Sequence record: NC_019719.1
Direction: 5' to 3' (one strand)
Length of the DNA: 41,528 nt
Source of the DNA: Escherichia phage HK633
Shown: piece by piece, positions 4,031 to 41,528 of the stretch
How positions within the stretch are numbered: position 1 is the stretch's first letter
Layout: each line of letters opens with the position of its first letter
Program-made: the position numbers and the translations under genes
Notes under the pieces: model-generated
Seen by the model: the letters and a program-made list of their open reading frames with translations, nothing else
Databases searched by the model: none
Told to the model about the DNA's origin: nothing

Positions 4031-5188
4031 ATGTCTGAACTCGCTCTCATTCAAAAAGCTATCGAAGAATCCCAGCAGAAAATGACCCAGCTTTTCGATG
4101 CGCAGAAAGCAGAAATCGAAAGCACAGGCCAGGTTTCCAAACAGTTGCAGTCCGACCTGATGAAAGTACAGGAAGAGCTGACCAAATCCGGCACTCGCCT
4201 CTTCGATCTGGAACAGAAACTGGCATCCGGCGCTGAGAATCCTGGTGAGAAGAAATCCTTCTCTGAACGGGCTGCTGAAGAGCTTATTAAGTCATGGGAC
4301 GGTAAACAGGGCACCTTTGGCGCTAAAACGTTTAACAAGTCACTAGGCAGTGACGCTGATTCGGCTGGCTCACTGATCCAGCCTATGCAGATCCCAGGCA
4401 TCATCATGCCAGGCCTGCGCCGTCTTACCATTCGTGATCTGCTGGCTCAGGGCCGCACTTCCAGTAACGCTCTGGAATATGTGCGTGAAGAGGTGTTTAC
4501 CAATAACGCCGACGTGGTGGCAGAGAAAGCACTGAAGCCAGAATCGGATATCACCTTCAGCAAACAAACCGCGAACGTGAAGACCATCGCGCACTGGGTG
4601 CAGGCATCACGTCAGGTGATGGATGATGCGCCAATGCTTCAGTCCTACATTAACAACCGCCTCATGTACGGCCTGGCACTGAAGGAAGAGGGCCAGCTGC
4701 TGAACGGCGACGGTACCGGGGATAACCTGGAAGGGCTGAACAAAGTGGCAACCGCCTATGACACCTCGCTGAATGCCACCGGCGACACCCGCGCTGACAT
4801 TATCGCTCACGCTATTTATCAGGTGACCGAGTCTGAGTTCAGCGCTTCCGGTATCGTCCTGAACCCGCGCGACTGGCACAACATCGCGTTGCTGAAAGAC
4901 AATGAAGGCCGCTATATCTTCGGTGGTCCTCAGGCATTCACCAGTAACATCATGTGGGGCTTGCCAGTGGTTCCGACTAAGGCGCAGGCCGCCGGCACCT
5001 TTACCGTAGGCGGTTTCGATATGGCCTCACAGGTCTGGGATCGCATGGATGCCACCGTGGAAGTTAGCCGTGAAGACCGCGATAACTTCGTGAAAAACAT
5101 GCTGACCATCCTGTGCGAAGAGCGTCTGGCGCTGGCGCATTATCGCCCGACAGCAATCATCAAGGGCACCTTCTCTTCTGGCTCATGA
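4031..5188 (+). CDS. Major capsid protein (HK97 gp5 type)
   Basis: 385 aa; counting residues gives Lys103 (delta-domain cleavage boundary), Lys169, Asn356 and Glu363 at the positions known for HK97 isopeptide crosslinking. Confidence 0.95.
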   Translation: MSELALIQKAIEESQQKMTQLFDAQKAEIESTGQVSKQLQSDLMKVQEELTKSGTRLFDLEQKLASGAENPGEKKSFSERAAEELIKSWDGKQGTFGAKTFNKSLGSDADSAGSLIQPMQIPGIIMPGLRRLTIRDLLAQGRTSSNALEYVREEVFTNNADVVAEKALKPESDITFSKQTANVKTIAHWVQASRQVMDDAPMLQSYINNRLMYGLALKEEGQLLNGDGTGDNLEGLNKVATAYDTSLNATGDTRADIIAHAIYQVTESEFSASGIVLNPRDWHNIALLKDNEGRYIFGGPQAFTSNIMWGLPVVPTKAQAAGTFTVGGFDMASQVWDRMDATVEVSREDRDNFVKNMLTILCEERLALAHYRPTAIIKGTFSSGS

Positions 5189-5221: not shown

Positions 5222-5548
5222 ATGGCGATAGATGTTCTGGATGTAATTTCCCTCAGTCTGTTTAAGCAGCAGATTGAGTTTGAGGAAGACGACAGGGACG
5301 AGCTGATCACGCTGTACGCCCAGGCCGCTTTTGACTACTGCATGCGCTGGTGCGATGAACCAGCATGGAAGGTTGCGGCTGATATTCCTGCCGCCGTTAA
5401 GGGCGCCGTTCTGCTTGTCTTTGCTGACATGTTTGAACACCGGACGGCACAAAGCGAAGTGCAGCTTTATGAGAATGCAGCCGCCGAACGCATGATGTTC
5501 ATTCATCGCAACTGGCGCGGTAAAGCCGAATCAGAGGAGGGCTCCTGA
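5222..5548 (+). CDS. Head-tail connector / DNA-packaging protein (gp6-like)
   Basis: 108 aa directly after capsid gene; position and size match head-completion genes of HK97-like modules. Confidence 0.65.
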   Translation: MAIDVLDVISLSLFKQQIEFEEDDRDELITLYAQAAFDYCMRWCDEPAWKVAADIPAAVKGAVLLVFADMFEHRTAQSEVQLYENAAAERMMFIHRNWRGKAESEEGS

Positions 5549-6735: not shown

Positions 6736-7440
6736 ATGTCTGCACTTTATGAAAAATCGCAGCTGACGAAGATCCTTATTTCCTCCCTGCCGTCCACCAA
6801 AGAAACGATGGATTCCGCCACCTTTCTCGATCTGAGTTGCACCATCAAAGAAATTCAGTTCACTGGTGGCCAGAAGCAGGATATCGACGTAACAACACTT
6901 TGCTCTACCGAGCAGGAGAACATCAACGGCCTGCCTTCTCCGTCAGAAATCTCTCTGTCCGGCAACTTCTACAATAATCCAGCGCAGGACGCCTTGCGTG
7001 ATGCGTATGACAACGACACCACTTACGGCTTCCAGATCATCTTCCCGTCAGGTAATGGTTTTAAGTTCCTGGCCGAAGTTCGCCAGCATACCTGGTCATC
7101 TGGTACCAATGGTGTTGTGGCAGCTACATTCTCACTGCGCCTTAAAGGCAAGCCTGTCCCGATTGACTCTGTACTTAAACTGACCACTGATCTTCCTTCC
7201 TCACTGTCTGTAGCGGTGGGGGCTGCGATCAGCATGGCTGTAGTAGCTGCCGGTGGTAAGCCTCCGTATGCCTACACCTGGAAGAAGGCAGGTAGCACCG
7301 TCAGCGGGCAGACATCCGATACCTTTAATAAAGCCACCGCAGTTTCAGGTGATGCAGGTGATTACACCTGTGTGGTTACGGATTCTTCTTCTCCGGTCAA
7401 AACGGTTACCTCAGCTGCCTGCACCCTTACTATCAGTTAA
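6736..7440 (+). CDS. Major tail protein with C-terminal Ig-like domain
   Basis: GGAG RBS; 234 aa; C-terminal ~80 aa resembles Big_2/Ig-like decoration domain as in lambda gpV. Confidence 0.8.
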   Translation: MSALYEKSQLTKILISSLPSTKETMDSATFLDLSCTIKEIQFTGGQKQDIDVTTLCSTEQENINGLPSPSEISLSGNFYNNPAQDALRDAYDNDTTYGFQIIFPSGNGFKFLAEVRQHTWSSGTNGVVAATFSLRLKGKPVPIDSVLKLTTDLPSSLSVAVGAAISMAVVAAGGKPPYAYTWKKAGSTVSGQTSDTFNKATAVSGDAGDYTCVVTDSSSPVKTVTSAACTLTIS

Positions 7441-36056: not shown

Positions 36057-36241
36057 ACGCCACAATTCAAACGATACCAGAGCTTCTTATCCAGACACGA
36101 GGCAATCAGACCGAAGTGGCGAGGATGCTTTCCTGCGCAAGAGGAACGGTGCTCAAGTACAACCGAGATAGCAAAGGCGAGCGTCACGTAATAGTTAACG
36201 GCGTCCTGATGGTCAAACAGGGCAAGAGGGGAAGACGATGA
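36053..36241 (+). CDS. ninH: NinH
   Basis: 62 aa; GNQTEVARMLSCARGTVLKY helix-turn-helix as in lambda NinH. Confidence 0.7.
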   Translation: MNATIQTIPELLIQTRGNQTEVARMLSCARGTVLKYNRDSKGERHVIVNGVLMVKQGKRGRR

Positions 36242-36861
36242 GACTCGAAAGCGTAGCTAAATTTCATTCGCCAAAAAGCCCGATGATGAGCGACTCACCA
36301 CGGGCCACGGCTTCTGACTCTCTTTCCGGTACTGATGTGATGGCTGCTATGGGGATGGCGCAATCACAAGCCGGATTTGGAATGGCTGCATTCTGTGGTA
36401 AGCACGAACTCAGCCAGAACGACAAACAAAAGGCTATCAACTATCTGATGCAATTTGCACACAAGGTATCGGGGAAATACCGTGGTGTGGCAAAGCTCGA
36501 AGGAAATACTAAGGCAAAGGTGCTGCAAGTGCTCGCAACATTCGCTTATGCGGATTATTGCCGTAGTGCCGCGACGCCGGGCGCAAGATGCAGAGATTGT
36601 CACGGTACTGGCCGGGCCGTTGATATTGCCAAAACAGAACGGTGGGGGAGAGTTGTCGAGAAAGAGTGCGGAAGATGCAAAGGCGTCGGCTATTCAAGGA
36701 TGCCAGCAAGCGCAGCATATCGCGCTGTAACGATGCTAATCCCAAACCTTACTCAACCCACCTGGTCACGCACTGTTAAGCCGCTGTATGACGCTCTGGT
36801 GGTGCAATGCCACAAAGAAGAGTCAATCGCAGACAACATTTTGAGTGCGGTCACACGTTAG
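36238..36861 (+). CDS. Q: Late antiterminator Q
   Basis: 207 aa; matches lambda Q as recalled, including the CRDCHGTG ... CGRCKG zinc site. Confidence 0.9.
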   Translation: MRLESVAKFHSPKSPMMSDSPRATASDSLSGTDVMAAMGMAQSQAGFGMAAFCGKHELSQNDKQKAINYLMQFAHKVSGKYRGVAKLEGNTKAKVLQVLATFAYADYCRSAATPGARCRDCHGTGRAVDIAKTERWGRVVEKECGRCKGVGYSRMPASAAYRAVTMLIPNLTQPTWSRTVKPLYDALVVQCHKEESIADNILSAVTR

Positions 36862-39318: not shown

Positions 39319-39549
39319 ATGTCCAATATCATCCCGATTGATTTCGAAGGCCATCCCATGCGTTTTTCTGACGATGGCTGGTTTGACGCGACTGCGGCAG
39401 CTGACAAGTTCAACAAGGAGCCGGCTCAGTGGCTTAGGCTTCCTGAGACTGTCCGTTACATCGAGGCGTTAAAGAGTAGATATGGGAATATCACATATGT
39501 AAAAACCAGCCGCGCTCGCAAAGAAAGTGCCTGGTGGAAGCATAAATAA
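39319..39549 (+). CDS. KilA-N domain protein
   Basis: 76 aa from ATG 39319; motif GWFDATAAADKFNKEPAQWLRLPETVRYIEAL resembles the KilA-N/APSES core. Confidence 0.5.
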   Translation: MSNIIPIDFEGHPMRFSDDGWFDATAAADKFNKEPAQWLRLPETVRYIEALKSRYGNITYVKTSRARKESAWWKHK

Positions 39550-39560
39550 CTGGAGGACTT

Positions 39561-39896
39561 ATGATTTCGTATGAGGTTGAGTTTCCGACCCATAAATCGT
39601 TTAGCTTAAAAATTAATGGTTACTCTTCAACAGAGGGGCTGGATTGTAAAACGGTTGAGGCTATTGGCGGAGACGTCAACGTGCGGCTCGAAAAGAAGAC
39701 TCTGTTGATGGTCCCTTATCATGAAGACATCACGCCAGATTTCACCTTGGAAGGTTACAAGCAGCGCGCTGAAACTTACGCGAAAACTGTGATCGATCAG
39801 ATTGTTAATGCGGCTCAGCACCGAGCCGCTGACGATTTAATTCAGGAAGTTACGAACGCGGTTACTTCTTCTGAATTATTTTCTCAACTCTCTTAA
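39561..39896 (+). CDS. Hypothetical protein
   Basis: 111 aa; GGAGG RBS 4 nt upstream of ATG. Confidence 0.5.
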   Translation: MISYEVEFPTHKSFSLKINGYSSTEGLDCKTVEAIGGDVNVRLEKKTLLMVPYHEDITPDFTLEGYKQRAETYAKTVIDQIVNAAQHRAADDLIQEVTNAVTSSELFSQLS

Positions 39897-40107
39897 TCGC
39901 CTCGTGAGCATCTGGGGCCGATGAAATTTCAGGCGGTGTAACCTCCTTCAGTACATCCATCAGAACGTCCCTAACATTCTGTTTTGGTGACAGTTTGTTA
40001 ACAGCTTCAATAATCAGAGAAAAAACCAGTTTATTGGTGGCTTTTTCAATCTGTAATTCACGTTGTAAATCTGCAACTGCTTTTTCCAGTTCTGACATGG
40101 AACCCAT
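39862..40107 (-). CDS. Hypothetical helical protein on the opposite strand (convergent moron)
   Basis: 81 aa; AGGA-type RBS; 3' end overlaps 39561-39896 by 35 nt; antisense to late transcription. Confidence 0.4.
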   Translation of the reverse strand: MGSMSELEKAVADLQRELQIEKATNKLVFSLIIEAVNKLSPKQNVRDVLMDVLKEVTPPEISSAPDAHEAIKRVEKIIQKK

Positions 40108-40236
40108 GGGTATTTTCCTTTTCAGAGGTAATCAGCCATCCCTCCGCATTGAATGCGCCAGTGTCCCACCACTGACGGGCTGAATGCTTACCTTAACCAG
40201 GGTTAATGAGAAGTAACACCCTGATATTCAGACAGT

Positions 40237-40259
40237 AGCCGCCATCGTGCGGCTTTTTT
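40237..40259 (+). terminator. Intrinsic terminator (AGCCGC-CATCGT-GCGGCT + T6)
   Basis: Perfect 6-bp stem and T6 run, 16 nt before the next gene. Confidence 0.7.
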
Positions 40260-40274
40260 ATTAGAGATTCGCTG

Positions 40275-40862
40275 GTGGCTGAAGACATAAAATTTGTGGT
40301 GGTCGGCCATCACATCCGCTTAGGACATGCACAACGTCTTGCTGCGCTGCTGCATGCTCATCTGCTGGTTGATGACGATAACCACGGCGCGAACTGGAAT
40401 CATCGCCGCGCGCTTGAGTGGGCAGCAGAACAAACCTGCCGGGTAGTGGTGTTGGAAGACGACGCACTGCCAGTACATGGATTCGCCGAAAAGGTAACGT
40501 ACTGGCTGGCGCGCTTCCCTGACGACATGCTGAGCTTTTATCTCGGTACCGGCCGACCGCCGCAGTATCAGAAAGAGATTGCCGGAATGCTGGTGGAATC
40601 AGACAGAGTAAACGCTGATTACCTTGTTCTTAACAAACTGATTCACGGCGTATGTTATAGCCCTCCTCAGGGCAGGCTGGCGCGCATGCTTAACGCATGG
40701 AATAAAACGCTGGCAGCTGATTACGCCGTCGGTGAGGCATTCGGTGGCCGGGTGATTTATCCGTGTTACTCGCTGGTGGATCACGCTGACCTCCCGACGG
40801 TTGAGCGTCACCCTGACAACGAACCGAGGACGGAACGCCGCCGCGCATGGAGACTGGCATGA
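40275..40862 (+). CDS. Hypothetical alpha/beta protein translationally coupled to HNH endonuclease
   Basis: 195 aa from GTG 40275 (no in-frame ATG for about 90 codons); stop overlaps HNH ATG (ATGA); beta-alpha-beta pattern with DDD and VVVLEDD acidic motifs. Confidence 0.5.
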   Translation: MAEDIKFVVVGHHIRLGHAQRLAALLHAHLLVDDDNHGANWNHRRALEWAAEQTCRVVVLEDDALPVHGFAEKVTYWLARFPDDMLSFYLGTGRPPQYQKEIAGMLVESDRVNADYLVLNKLIHGVCYSPPQGRLARMLNAWNKTLAADYAVGEAFGGRVIYPCYSLVDHADLPTVERHPDNEPRTERRRAWRLA

Positions 40863-41200
40863 ACAAAGAGCCCCGCGTATATGGCAGCCGATGGGATAAG
40901 GCCCGTCTGCGTTTCCTGCAGCAGCACCCACTATGTGTGATGTGCGAGCAGCAGGGGCGCATAACACCAGCAACGGTGGTCGACCATATCGTGCCCCACA
41001 AACTGAAAGATGCGCTTAAGTCAGGTAACCCTCTGGCCATATCGAAAGCACAGCTCCTGTTCTGGAGTAAAGAGAACTGGCAGCCACTGTGCAAAGCGCA
41101 TCATGACTCAACGAAACAGAGAATGGAGAAGAGCGGCGCGGTAATCGGTTGTGATGCCAACGGCTACCCGCTCGATCCTGCGTCTCACTGGAGCACGTAA
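40859..41200 (+). CDS. HNH endonuclease (terminase-associated, HK97 gp74-like)
   Basis: 113 aa from ATG 40859 (GGAGA RBS); C-x2-C ... H ... H-N-H zinc-finger pattern (CVMCEQQGR...VDHIVPH...CKAHH). Confidence 0.8.
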   Translation: MNKEPRVYGSRWDKARLRFLQQHPLCVMCEQQGRITPATVVDHIVPHKLKDALKSGNPLAISKAQLLFWSKENWQPLCKAHHDSTKQRMEKSGAVIGCDANGYPLDPASHWST

Positions 41201-41403
41201 TGAAAGACCTCATCATTGAATACCGAGACGGTAAGTTTGTTCAGCTGGCGATTGATGGCGTGGAGATGAAGCGCGTAACGTCTATCCAGTTCTCCCACAC
41301 CTTAGGCGAGGACGTACCGACATTGACCGTGTCAGGACATGTGTGGTCCGAGTATGGGAAAGGCGATCACAAACTCGAACAGGTAGACAAACATTCGGCA
41401 TAG
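41200..41403 (+). CDS. Hypothetical small protein
   Basis: 67 aa; TAATG overlap with HNH stop; last ORF before the genome end. Confidence 0.45.
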   Translation: MKDLIIEYRDGKFVQLAIDGVEMKRVTSIQFSHTLGEDVPTLTVSGHVWSEYGKGDHKLEQVDKHSA

Positions 41404-41528
41404 CGCGGCGGCGGCAAGTCGATTATCTATCATGTGAAATCATTTCAAATGCAACGATATCAAATGAGAATGAATCGCATTCAGGGCAGGGGGGGGATCA
41501 AATCTTCAAAACCTTTGCCCTAAATGAC

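Follow-up and report, generated by a model that had tools for sequence, protein, structure and literature searches.

What does the 195-amino-acid open reading frame (ORF) that ends on the start codon of the HNH endonuclease gene of Escherichia phage HK633 encode, and is it tied to DNA packaging? The stretch of DNA analysed (NC_019719.1 at its full 41,528 nucleotides, called the window here) is a complete temperate phage genome of the HK97/HK022 type (Hendrixvirinae), cut at cos, and the ORF, at 40275-40862 on the plus strand, is intact from its GTG start to its stop codon. An earlier note, made from the DNA letters alone, had left the product unassigned. That label was wrong: residues 5-194 match PHROG 854, 'glucosyltransferase', at E = 4e-72, and RefSeq gives this same name to the orthologues in phages HK542, ECP1, ENT39118 and mEp390. 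Judged by sequence, predicted fold and motifs, the protein (the small glycosyltransferase, or small GT, below) is a member of the Che8 gp110 / PHROG 854 family. It is thus of a kind already known, and the copy in the window is a leftover and not a DNA-packaging factor. The account that I favour, and hold to be rather probable, is that it is a late-expressed GT-A enzyme of the gp110 family that would initiate O-glycosylation of the virion, orphaned in this phage and adding at most a short glycan to the capsid C-terminus.

Membership of the family is evident along the whole protein. BLASTP aligns the small GT with gp110 of mycobacteriophage Che8 over its full length (33% identity over 192 aa, E = 3e-23), and it is also homologous to Krili gp35, Phendrix gp80 and Doug gp99. 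The clustered protein collection contains 1764 homologues, with 498 clusters at 50% identity, and among phage genomes tblastn finds the family in 717 records, most of which (662) are Mycobacterium phages. In an alignment of 73 diverse members, eight residues are invariant (R15, D63, Y89, G91, D149, S166, H170 and R189) and the window protein has all eight, as well as the near-invariant H12, D33, G38, H43, D62, A64, P66 and others. Two acidic clusters, LLVDDD and VVVLEDD, had been singled out in the earlier note, and both proved meaningful: D33 within the first is conserved in at least 90% of family sequences, and E61-D62-D63 within the second is the family's EDD/DXD motif. Scans of the protein with Pfam, NCBIfam and PADLOC gave no match (with Pfam, none even at E <= 1). 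When PDB sequences were searched with this one protein, a methyltransferase, proteasome subunits and a beta-lactamase came back, which were rejected as chance-level matches, all having E > 0.1.

The structural model points the same way. An AlphaFold (AF2) model built from the 73-member alignment has alternating beta strands and alpha helices (predicted local distance difference test score, pLDDT, 96.1; predicted template-modelling score, pTM, 0.92). Foldseek places Mimivirus R655, the LH3 glycosyltransferase domain, POMGnT1, GnT-I, COLGALT1, STIV A197 and GalNAc-T2 among its top matches in the PDB, with R655 (9crz) at E = 7e-7 and a template-modelling (TM) score of 0.61 and COLGALT1 at TM 0.59. 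Against viral models the phage family itself comes first (A0A6G5YIP4, TM 0.93; mycobacteriophage Ardmore gp87, TM 0.90), followed by many 'family 25' glycosyltransferases of giant viruses. In the family profile alignment VLEDDA falls on the EDD motif of R655 and COLGALT1, and weak matches to PF01755 (GT25) appear in 25 of the 73 relatives (best 8.6e-8), the window protein itself having no match above the PF01755 gathering score. The small GT is predicted to be a minimal enzyme of the GT-A fold, distantly GT25-like, with VVVLEDD as its DXD motif. Because of the GT-A structural matches, the EDD alignment and the PF01755 matches in relatives, the guess of an alpha/beta nucleotide- or sugar-transferring enzyme in the earlier note was right.

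The likeness to GT25/PF01755 enzymes (COLGALT1/GLT25D1, Mimivirus R655 and the bacterial lipooligosaccharide galactosyltransferases) lies in the shared fold and the position of the EDD motif, at a TM of about 0.6, and several GT25 members O-glycosylate proteins. Those enzymes are 310-520 aa long, however, whereas the window protein has 195 aa, is 9-14% identical to them and lacks a Pfam match, and their acceptor is hydroxylysine or a lipid-linked sugar, where that of the small GT would be a C-terminal serine. STIV A197 (PDB 2c0n; TMt 0.56) likewise consists of one viral GT-A domain, about 195 aa long and standing alone, although it belongs to an archaeal virus and has no detectable sequence relationship to the window protein.

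The most informative comparison is with Che8 itself. In its lines on gp110, PMC12363180, citing Freeman et al. 2023, describes this protein as essential for capsid glycosylation and groups Corndog gp38 and Krili gp35 with it as glycosyltransferases of virion O-glycosylation; where other papers cite Freeman et al. 2023, it is for O-glycosylation of capsid and tail tube by phage-encoded glycosyltransferases. The Che8 gene order (gp108-gp109-gp110, all glycosyltransferases, then gp111, gp112, which is the HNH gene, cos and TerS) parallels the order of small GT, HNH gene, 67-aa ORF, cos and TerS at the right end of the window genome. Che8 gp110 has 211 aa against 195 aa in the window, and the conserved residues and predicted fold match; the capsid proteins of both phages end in Gly-Ser. 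The two phages differ in that Che8 has the partner glycosyltransferases gp108 and gp109 whereas the window genome has none, in the tail tube, which ends in Gly-Ser in Che8 but not in the window, and in their hosts, mycobacterial and Gram-negative; for HK97-like phages, glycosylated virions are a prediction from the genes. The mycobacteriophage glycans reportedly sit on the C-termini of the capsid and tail-tube subunits, and there is said to be little sign of glycosylation outside actinobacteriophages. Experimental proof of virion glycosylation is known only from mycobacteriophages, whose particles it protects against antibodies, and HK97-like enterobacterial phages have hitherto been regarded as unglycosylated.

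The boundaries of the gene are well defined. The closest in-frame stop codon 5' of the ORF is TAG 40236-40238, and no ATG, GTG or TTG lies in frame between it and the GTG at 40275. A terminator-like hairpin at 40237-40254 (6 bp, five of them G-C), followed by TTTTTTATT, precedes the ORF, so that the GTG stands 13 nt beyond the T-run; the first internal ATG, read from the translation, is codon 85. At the other end, TGA 40860-40862 overlaps the HNH start codon at 40859 as ATGA, and the annotations of HK542 and ECP1 have the same 113-aa HNH protein and the same 4-nt overlap with the small GT. Some 20 related loci in which the same cassette lies upstream read V-A-E-[DE]-I-K-F from the GTG, and in one of the related loci (L093) an ATG replaces the GTG at that very codon (MAEDIKF), so the comparative data support the GTG as the start. 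The dN/dS ratio (nonsynonymous to synonymous substitution rates) against relatives is 0.13-0.24, which indicates that the gene is under purifying selection. What the earlier note had said about these boundaries has held up: the GTG start just past a terminator, the lack of an ATG 'for about 90 codons', which is roughly right, and the overlap of stop and HNH start, which recurs in HK542, ECP1 and most of 80 related loci from IMG/VR.

A search for related loci with a 12-sequence alignment returned close enterobacterial relatives only. Of the 80 loci, 79 keep a second, larger glycosyltransferase gene (the big GT) no more than 1.2 kb 5' of the small GT. In an all-against-all BLAST of the cassette proteins the small GT alone proved universal, whereas its partners vary. 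A partner glycosyltransferase of 445-540 aa is found in HK542, ECP1, SaltyDalty, FSL SP-016, ENT47670, the Klebsiella jumbo phage FBKp24 and Doug; Krili has a methyltransferase and two glycosyltransferases, and the Gordonia phage Phendrix has gp79. Che8 gp108 and gp109 were considered as homologues of the enterobacterial big GT and rejected, being not homologous by BLAST. Over about 485 aa the big GT of mycobacteriophage Doug (gp97, L003) is 42-44% identical to those of the enterobacterial loci L001, L002, L004, L019 and L020. Such conservation across host phyla is unusually high for an accessory gene, and the C-terminal WW(K/R)HK is kept in Doug gp97 and in the enterobacterial phages. A metagenomic protein of 649 aa (P0172) has two GT2-like domains fused to a C-terminal small-GT domain (residues 446-641). 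I rejected it as a fusion of an HK542-type big GT with a small GT, its N-terminal domains being unrelated to the big GT, and its sequence links the small GT family only in a general way to multi-GT pathways and multi-step glycan assembly.

If the favoured account is right, the small GT would be a soluble enzyme of GT-A fold, GT25-like and probably dependent on a nucleotide sugar and a metal ion, and orthologous to Che8 gp110 as the conserved core enzyme of virion O-glycosylation cassettes. The family would recognise the Gly-Ser-COOH that capsid and tail-tube subunits expose at their C-termini and would attach the first sugar, after which variable partner glycosyltransferases and methyltransferases would lengthen the glycan. 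In other words, the small GT would read the free ...Gly-Ser-COOH end and prime it, and its partners would extend from there. Late expression is suggested because the gene lies downstream of a Q-like antiterminator and the lysis genes (37.9-39.1 kb) and because the sequence just before it shows the terminator and no promoter-like site, of sigma-70 type or other, that I could see. The antiterminator would let late transcription run through the hairpin into the GT, HNH and terminase genes, and since the small GT lies at the end of the Q-dependent late operon, before the HNH, terminase and head genes, its synthesis would coincide with that of the structural proteins. The genes for TerS, TerL, portal, protease and capsid begin at base 53 of the window, and those for an integrase, Erf, an O-like protein, a DnaB-like protein and Ant are also present. 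The most that residual activity could do in this phage would be to add a short (mono)saccharide to the C-terminus of the capsid and perhaps to the adaptor.

What points to the C-termini as acceptors is a signature in the virion proteins of phages that carry the cassette. The capsid and tail-tube proteins of Che8, Krili, Sparky, FSL SP-016, ENT47670, Phendrix and phiGD20-1 end in Ser, mostly Gly-Ser: TGS and DGS (capsid and tail tube, respectively) in Che8, VGS and GDS in Krili, GGS and GGS in Sparky, AGS and PGS in FSL SP-016, ATS and PSS in ENT47670, and AGS and AGS in phiGD20-1. Phendrix (L028, 36572-40388) has four consecutive virion proteins that end SGS, TGS, TGS and AGS, namely gp74 (major head), gp75, gp76 (annotated major tail) and gp77 (adaptor), directly 5' of gp79-gp80. 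The other structural proteins of the cassette-positive phages that I examined have no such Gly-Ser ends, and neither Ser nor Gly-Ser ends occur on the capsid and tail-tube proteins of L5, TM4 and Giles, whose full genomes were not scanned for the cassette. The metagenomic contigs with P0186, P0138 and P0146 stop short of the capsid genes, and FBKp24 and Cane17 are outside this comparison of C-termini. The pattern holds across phages of three host phyla or orders.

Within HK97-like phages (genomes anchored on the HNH gene, plus HK97, HK022, mEpX2, HK106 and HK544) the tail tube has a Gly-Ser end in 48 of 49 cassette-positive genomes versus none of six cassette-negative ones (Fisher p = 2.4e-7). 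For the capsid, the corresponding counts are 53 of 54 and five of seven (p = 0.03). These p-values overstate independence, because the genomes are related, and this is one of several points that weigh against the favoured account, taken up again below. The Gly-Ser-ended tail tubes span several sequence types (KRIYASGS, PENIESGS, PQKIDPGS, RIRVQQGS), and some of them match the HK97 protein at 92-94% identity over its N-terminal domain. Cassette-negative tail tubes are either of the long HK97 type ending TIS or of the HK022 type ending VTP, and the one exceptional cassette-positive genome, L132, has a tail tube ending CTLTVN. The long TIS-ended tail tube is taken to carry an immunoglobulin-like (Ig-like) C-terminal extension, so that glycans and the Ig-like extension may be alternative decorations of the tail. 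A capsid of 384 aa ending ...KGTFSAD, and not ...KGTFSSGS, occurs in L008, L118 and L191 (HK106), all three of which lack the big GT.

The cassette of the window is broken. HK542, ECP1 and ENT39118 show what a complete one looks like: their 'glucosyltransferases' (gp55 in HK542, gp23 in ECP1) are orthologues of the window protein with 84-87% amino-acid identity, and they share its ATGA overlap, HNH gene and slot in the late operon. There, however, the small GT is paired with a 'glycosyltransferase' of 445-486 aa and its ATG overlaps the 3' end of this big GT, whereas in the window the big GT is deleted and the GTG follows other ORFs and a terminator. The homology to HK542 covers the lysis genes, reaches into a KilA-N-like gene, ends at 39524 and restarts at 40290, which corresponds to the base right after the stop codon of the HK542 big GT, and tblastn found no big GT in the window besides a 3' remnant of 10 codons. 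A related locus, L006, has the order big GT (485 aa), 111-aa ORF, 81-aa ORF (minus strand), small GT and HNH gene, and from 39518 the window is 96% identical to it from position 5244, which is 31 nt before the end of its big GT gene. Because this match starts inside the big GT, the KilA-N-like ORF is a chimera that runs across a junction, ...TSRARK/ESAWWKHK and stop, at a shared GCAAAGA; its last 8 codons and what follows them derive from the 3' end of the lost 485-aa gene. A deletion between short GCAAAGA repeats took out the big GT.

The big GT is also missing in L005, L007 and L008, and since the in-frame KilA-N::GT junction of L008 is a different one, it has been lost at least twice. The loss in the window must be recent, because its small GT is nucleotide-identical to the copy in L006, which still has the big GT; an identical 195-aa protein is encoded on 10 contigs. 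The capsid and tail-tube proteins of the window are 100% identical to those of HK97. With the big GT deleted and a structural arm of HK97 type (capsid SSGS, tail tube TIS), the small GT is an orphan, and of the two proteins only the capsid (...SSGS) would offer the canonical Gly-Ser-COOH as a candidate acceptor.

How far do these observations carry? Besides the relatedness of the genomes, the difficulties are that the tail tube of the window has no Gly-Ser end and that HK97, HK022, mEpX2 and HK544 lack the cassette and yet have capsids ending SSGS, so that the capsid motif does not discriminate. That the enterobacterial members act as virion glycosyltransferases is a prediction from sequence, and the initiating role would follow only from the universality of the small GT and the word 'essential' as applied to gp110. 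Since 79 of the 80 related loci keep the big GT and the small GT of L134 (9420-9944) is truncated, the small enzyme may be of little use alone, and since the window copy is identical to that of L006, its intact reading frame is uninformative on selection as an orphan. L134 has no big GT, and its small GT lacks the first 21 or so and the last eight or so residues and the overlap with the HNH gene, an example of the decay of an orphaned gene.

These same observations are what the strongest alternative would predict: that the protein belongs to this family but is functionally inert here, a recent relic of the deletion of its partner and the acquisition of an HK97-type arm, not yet mutated. The deleted big GT, the near-universal pairing of the two genes, the small GT truncated at both ends in L134, the cassette-negative type of tail tube and the very recent loss implied by identity with L006 would all fit a relic. 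Nonetheless, no part of the ORF has been lost, and its invariant residues, conserved start and ATGA overlap are all in place. Deletions that spared the whole small GT arose independently at least twice (the window type and the L008 type), the orphan layout occurs on several contigs from different samples, and the capsid still ends SSGS, and for these reasons I regard inertness as rather unlikely. A residual initiating activity on the capsid remains the account I favour. A wider version of it, that HK97-like phages would decorate the Gly-Ser ends of capsid and tail tube with sugars by a two-enzyme module of the mycobacteriophage type, that the small GT initiates, that the orphan still adds one sugar to Ser385 of the gp5-identical capsid and that tail tubes carry either glycans or an Ig-like extension, I put forward only tentatively.

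Could the acceptor be a host glycan instead? A GT25-like enzyme might act at the cytoplasmic face on an envelope glycan (lipopolysaccharide (LPS) core, O-antigen or an intermediate of enterobacterial common antigen) and bring about superinfection exclusion or serotype conversion. The closest Pfam family among relatives, PF01755, is named 'LPS biosynthesis protein', the surroundings of the gene, from the lysis genes to cos, are rich in morons, and many homologues are in prophages. However, the two-GT module, with its big GT 42-44% identical, is common to mycobacterial and enterobacterial phages, which have no shared envelope acceptor, and in several phages the cassette lies within structural modules. 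ENT47670 has a separate GtrABC module for O-antigen conversion, a membrane-bound trio of the usual sort, whereas the window protein is a compact 195-aa domain of predicted GT-A fold with no match to a Gtr family. As the Gly-Ser signature of virion proteins also co-varies with the cassette, and the site directly upstream has a terminator and no sigma-70-like promoter that I could see, an envelope target seems improbable.

The last question is whether the HNH gene next door matters. The cassette lies just 5' of the HNH and terminase genes in Hendrixvirinae, FSL SP-016, Che8 and two metagenomic lineages (L030, L033). In the Cronobacter phage ENT47670, however, the small GT comes after the gene for the major tail protein, Krili has the cassette between the portal and protease genes, Phendrix has it between adaptor and tail genes, and FBKp24 and Cane17 have a small GT with no adjoining HNH gene. 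Conversely, HK97, HK022 and mEpX2 have a near-identical HNH gene and no GT; from the HNH gene onwards the window is 98.9-99.1% identical to HK022 and mEpX2 in DNA. Because the position of the cassette varies between phages, adjacency to the HNH gene is one of several placements by the structural operon, and it reflects position and not the functional coupling to the packaging nuclease that the earlier note had thought possible.

The DNA itself is a still poorer candidate. The known phage DNA glucosyltransferases have the GT-B fold, and the T4 AGT/BGT-type enzymes come with a hydroxymethyl-pyrimidine pathway as well, whereas the window protein is predicted to be GT-A. The ten largest remaining non-structural ORFs of the window encode ordinary lambdoid proteins (tail fibre, integrase, Erf, O, DnaB, Ant, Q and proteins of unknown function), with no hydroxymethylase or base-modification gene among them, the small ORFs not all having been scanned. 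A DNA glycosyltransferase acting against restriction, or a packaging accessory of HNH and terminase, along the lines of the DNA-modifying or accessory role in the earlier note, can be put aside as very improbable and is largely refuted by synteny, for although the small GT gene shares its last bases with the start codon of the HNH gene, has cos and terminase close by downstream and has the same neighbourhood in Che8, FSL SP-016, L030 and L033, it is away from the HNH gene in five other phages, HK97, HK022 and mEpX2 package their DNA with a near-identical HNH protein and no GT, the top 50 structural matches include several protein-glycosylating enzymes and no DNA glucosyltransferase, and Che8 gp110 glycosylates virion proteins.

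Three things may be new at the level of the family: that the module is widespread in HK97-like enterobacterial phages, that the Gly-Ser C-termini of capsid and tail tube co-vary with the cassette, and that in HK97-like phages the long tail tube with its Ig-like extension is found where the cassette is absent or broken. Among the papers searched, none dealt with these three points, and none with HK542 and glycosyltransferase. HK97-like prophages of Escherichia, Enterobacter, Citrobacter and Cronobacter often encode the core enzyme and its large partner, and the Gly-Ser acceptor signature is simple and testable and links them to the best-understood capsid system, HK97 gp5, with a possible route to glyco-engineered coliphage particles for therapy or display. 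The window copy matters less, since only half of its cassette survives.

Table 1. Features of the window that bear on the small GT and its cassette.
Feature	Position	Strand	Basis or remark
Small GT gene, 195 aa, Che8 gp110 family / PHROG 854	40275..40862	+	PHROG match, model, invariant residues
EDD motif, E61-D62-D63	40455-40463	+	family alignment
Invariant H170	40782-40784	+	family alignment
Terminator-like hairpin AGCCGC-CATCGT-GCGGCT and T-run	40237..40262	+	13 nt 5' of the GTG
HNH endonuclease, 113 aa	40859..41200	+	ATG overlaps small GT stop
Big GT remnant, last 10 codons (...KESAWWKHK, stop)	39518..39549	+	fused in frame to truncated KilA-N-like ORF 39319-39549
111-aa ORF, phrog_11851	39561..39896	+	between big and small GT genes in L006
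81-aa ORF, phrog_21164	39862..40107	-	moron-like insert that separates the GT genes in L006, L040, L082 and L101
Major capsid protein, 100% identical to HK97 gp5, ends ...KGTFSSGS	4031..5188	+	candidate acceptor
Head-tail adaptor (gp6-like), ends ...SEEGS	5222..5548	+	possible further acceptor
Major tail protein, 100% identical to HK97, S/T-rich C-terminal extension, ends ...CTLTIS	6736..7440	+	cassette-negative type
Q-like late antiterminator	36238..36861	+	scan of largest non-structural ORFs

The hairpin travels with the cassette, being kept in SaltyDalty and L009. An Rfam scan of 39500-41528 gave no match. Within the minus-strand 81-aa ORF there is a promoter-like site on the plus strand (39987-40014, 10/12 match). 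Site and terminator might bound an antisense RNA, about 240 nt long, over the 5' end of that gene, a possible RNA for which the region 39862-40262 likewise has no Rfam match. In SaltyDalty (L004, PP925825; 3092-3751) a 193-aa 'hypothetical protein' deposited on the minus strand covers an intact small GT on the plus strand, the antisense frame of this locus being open by chance over 256 codons.

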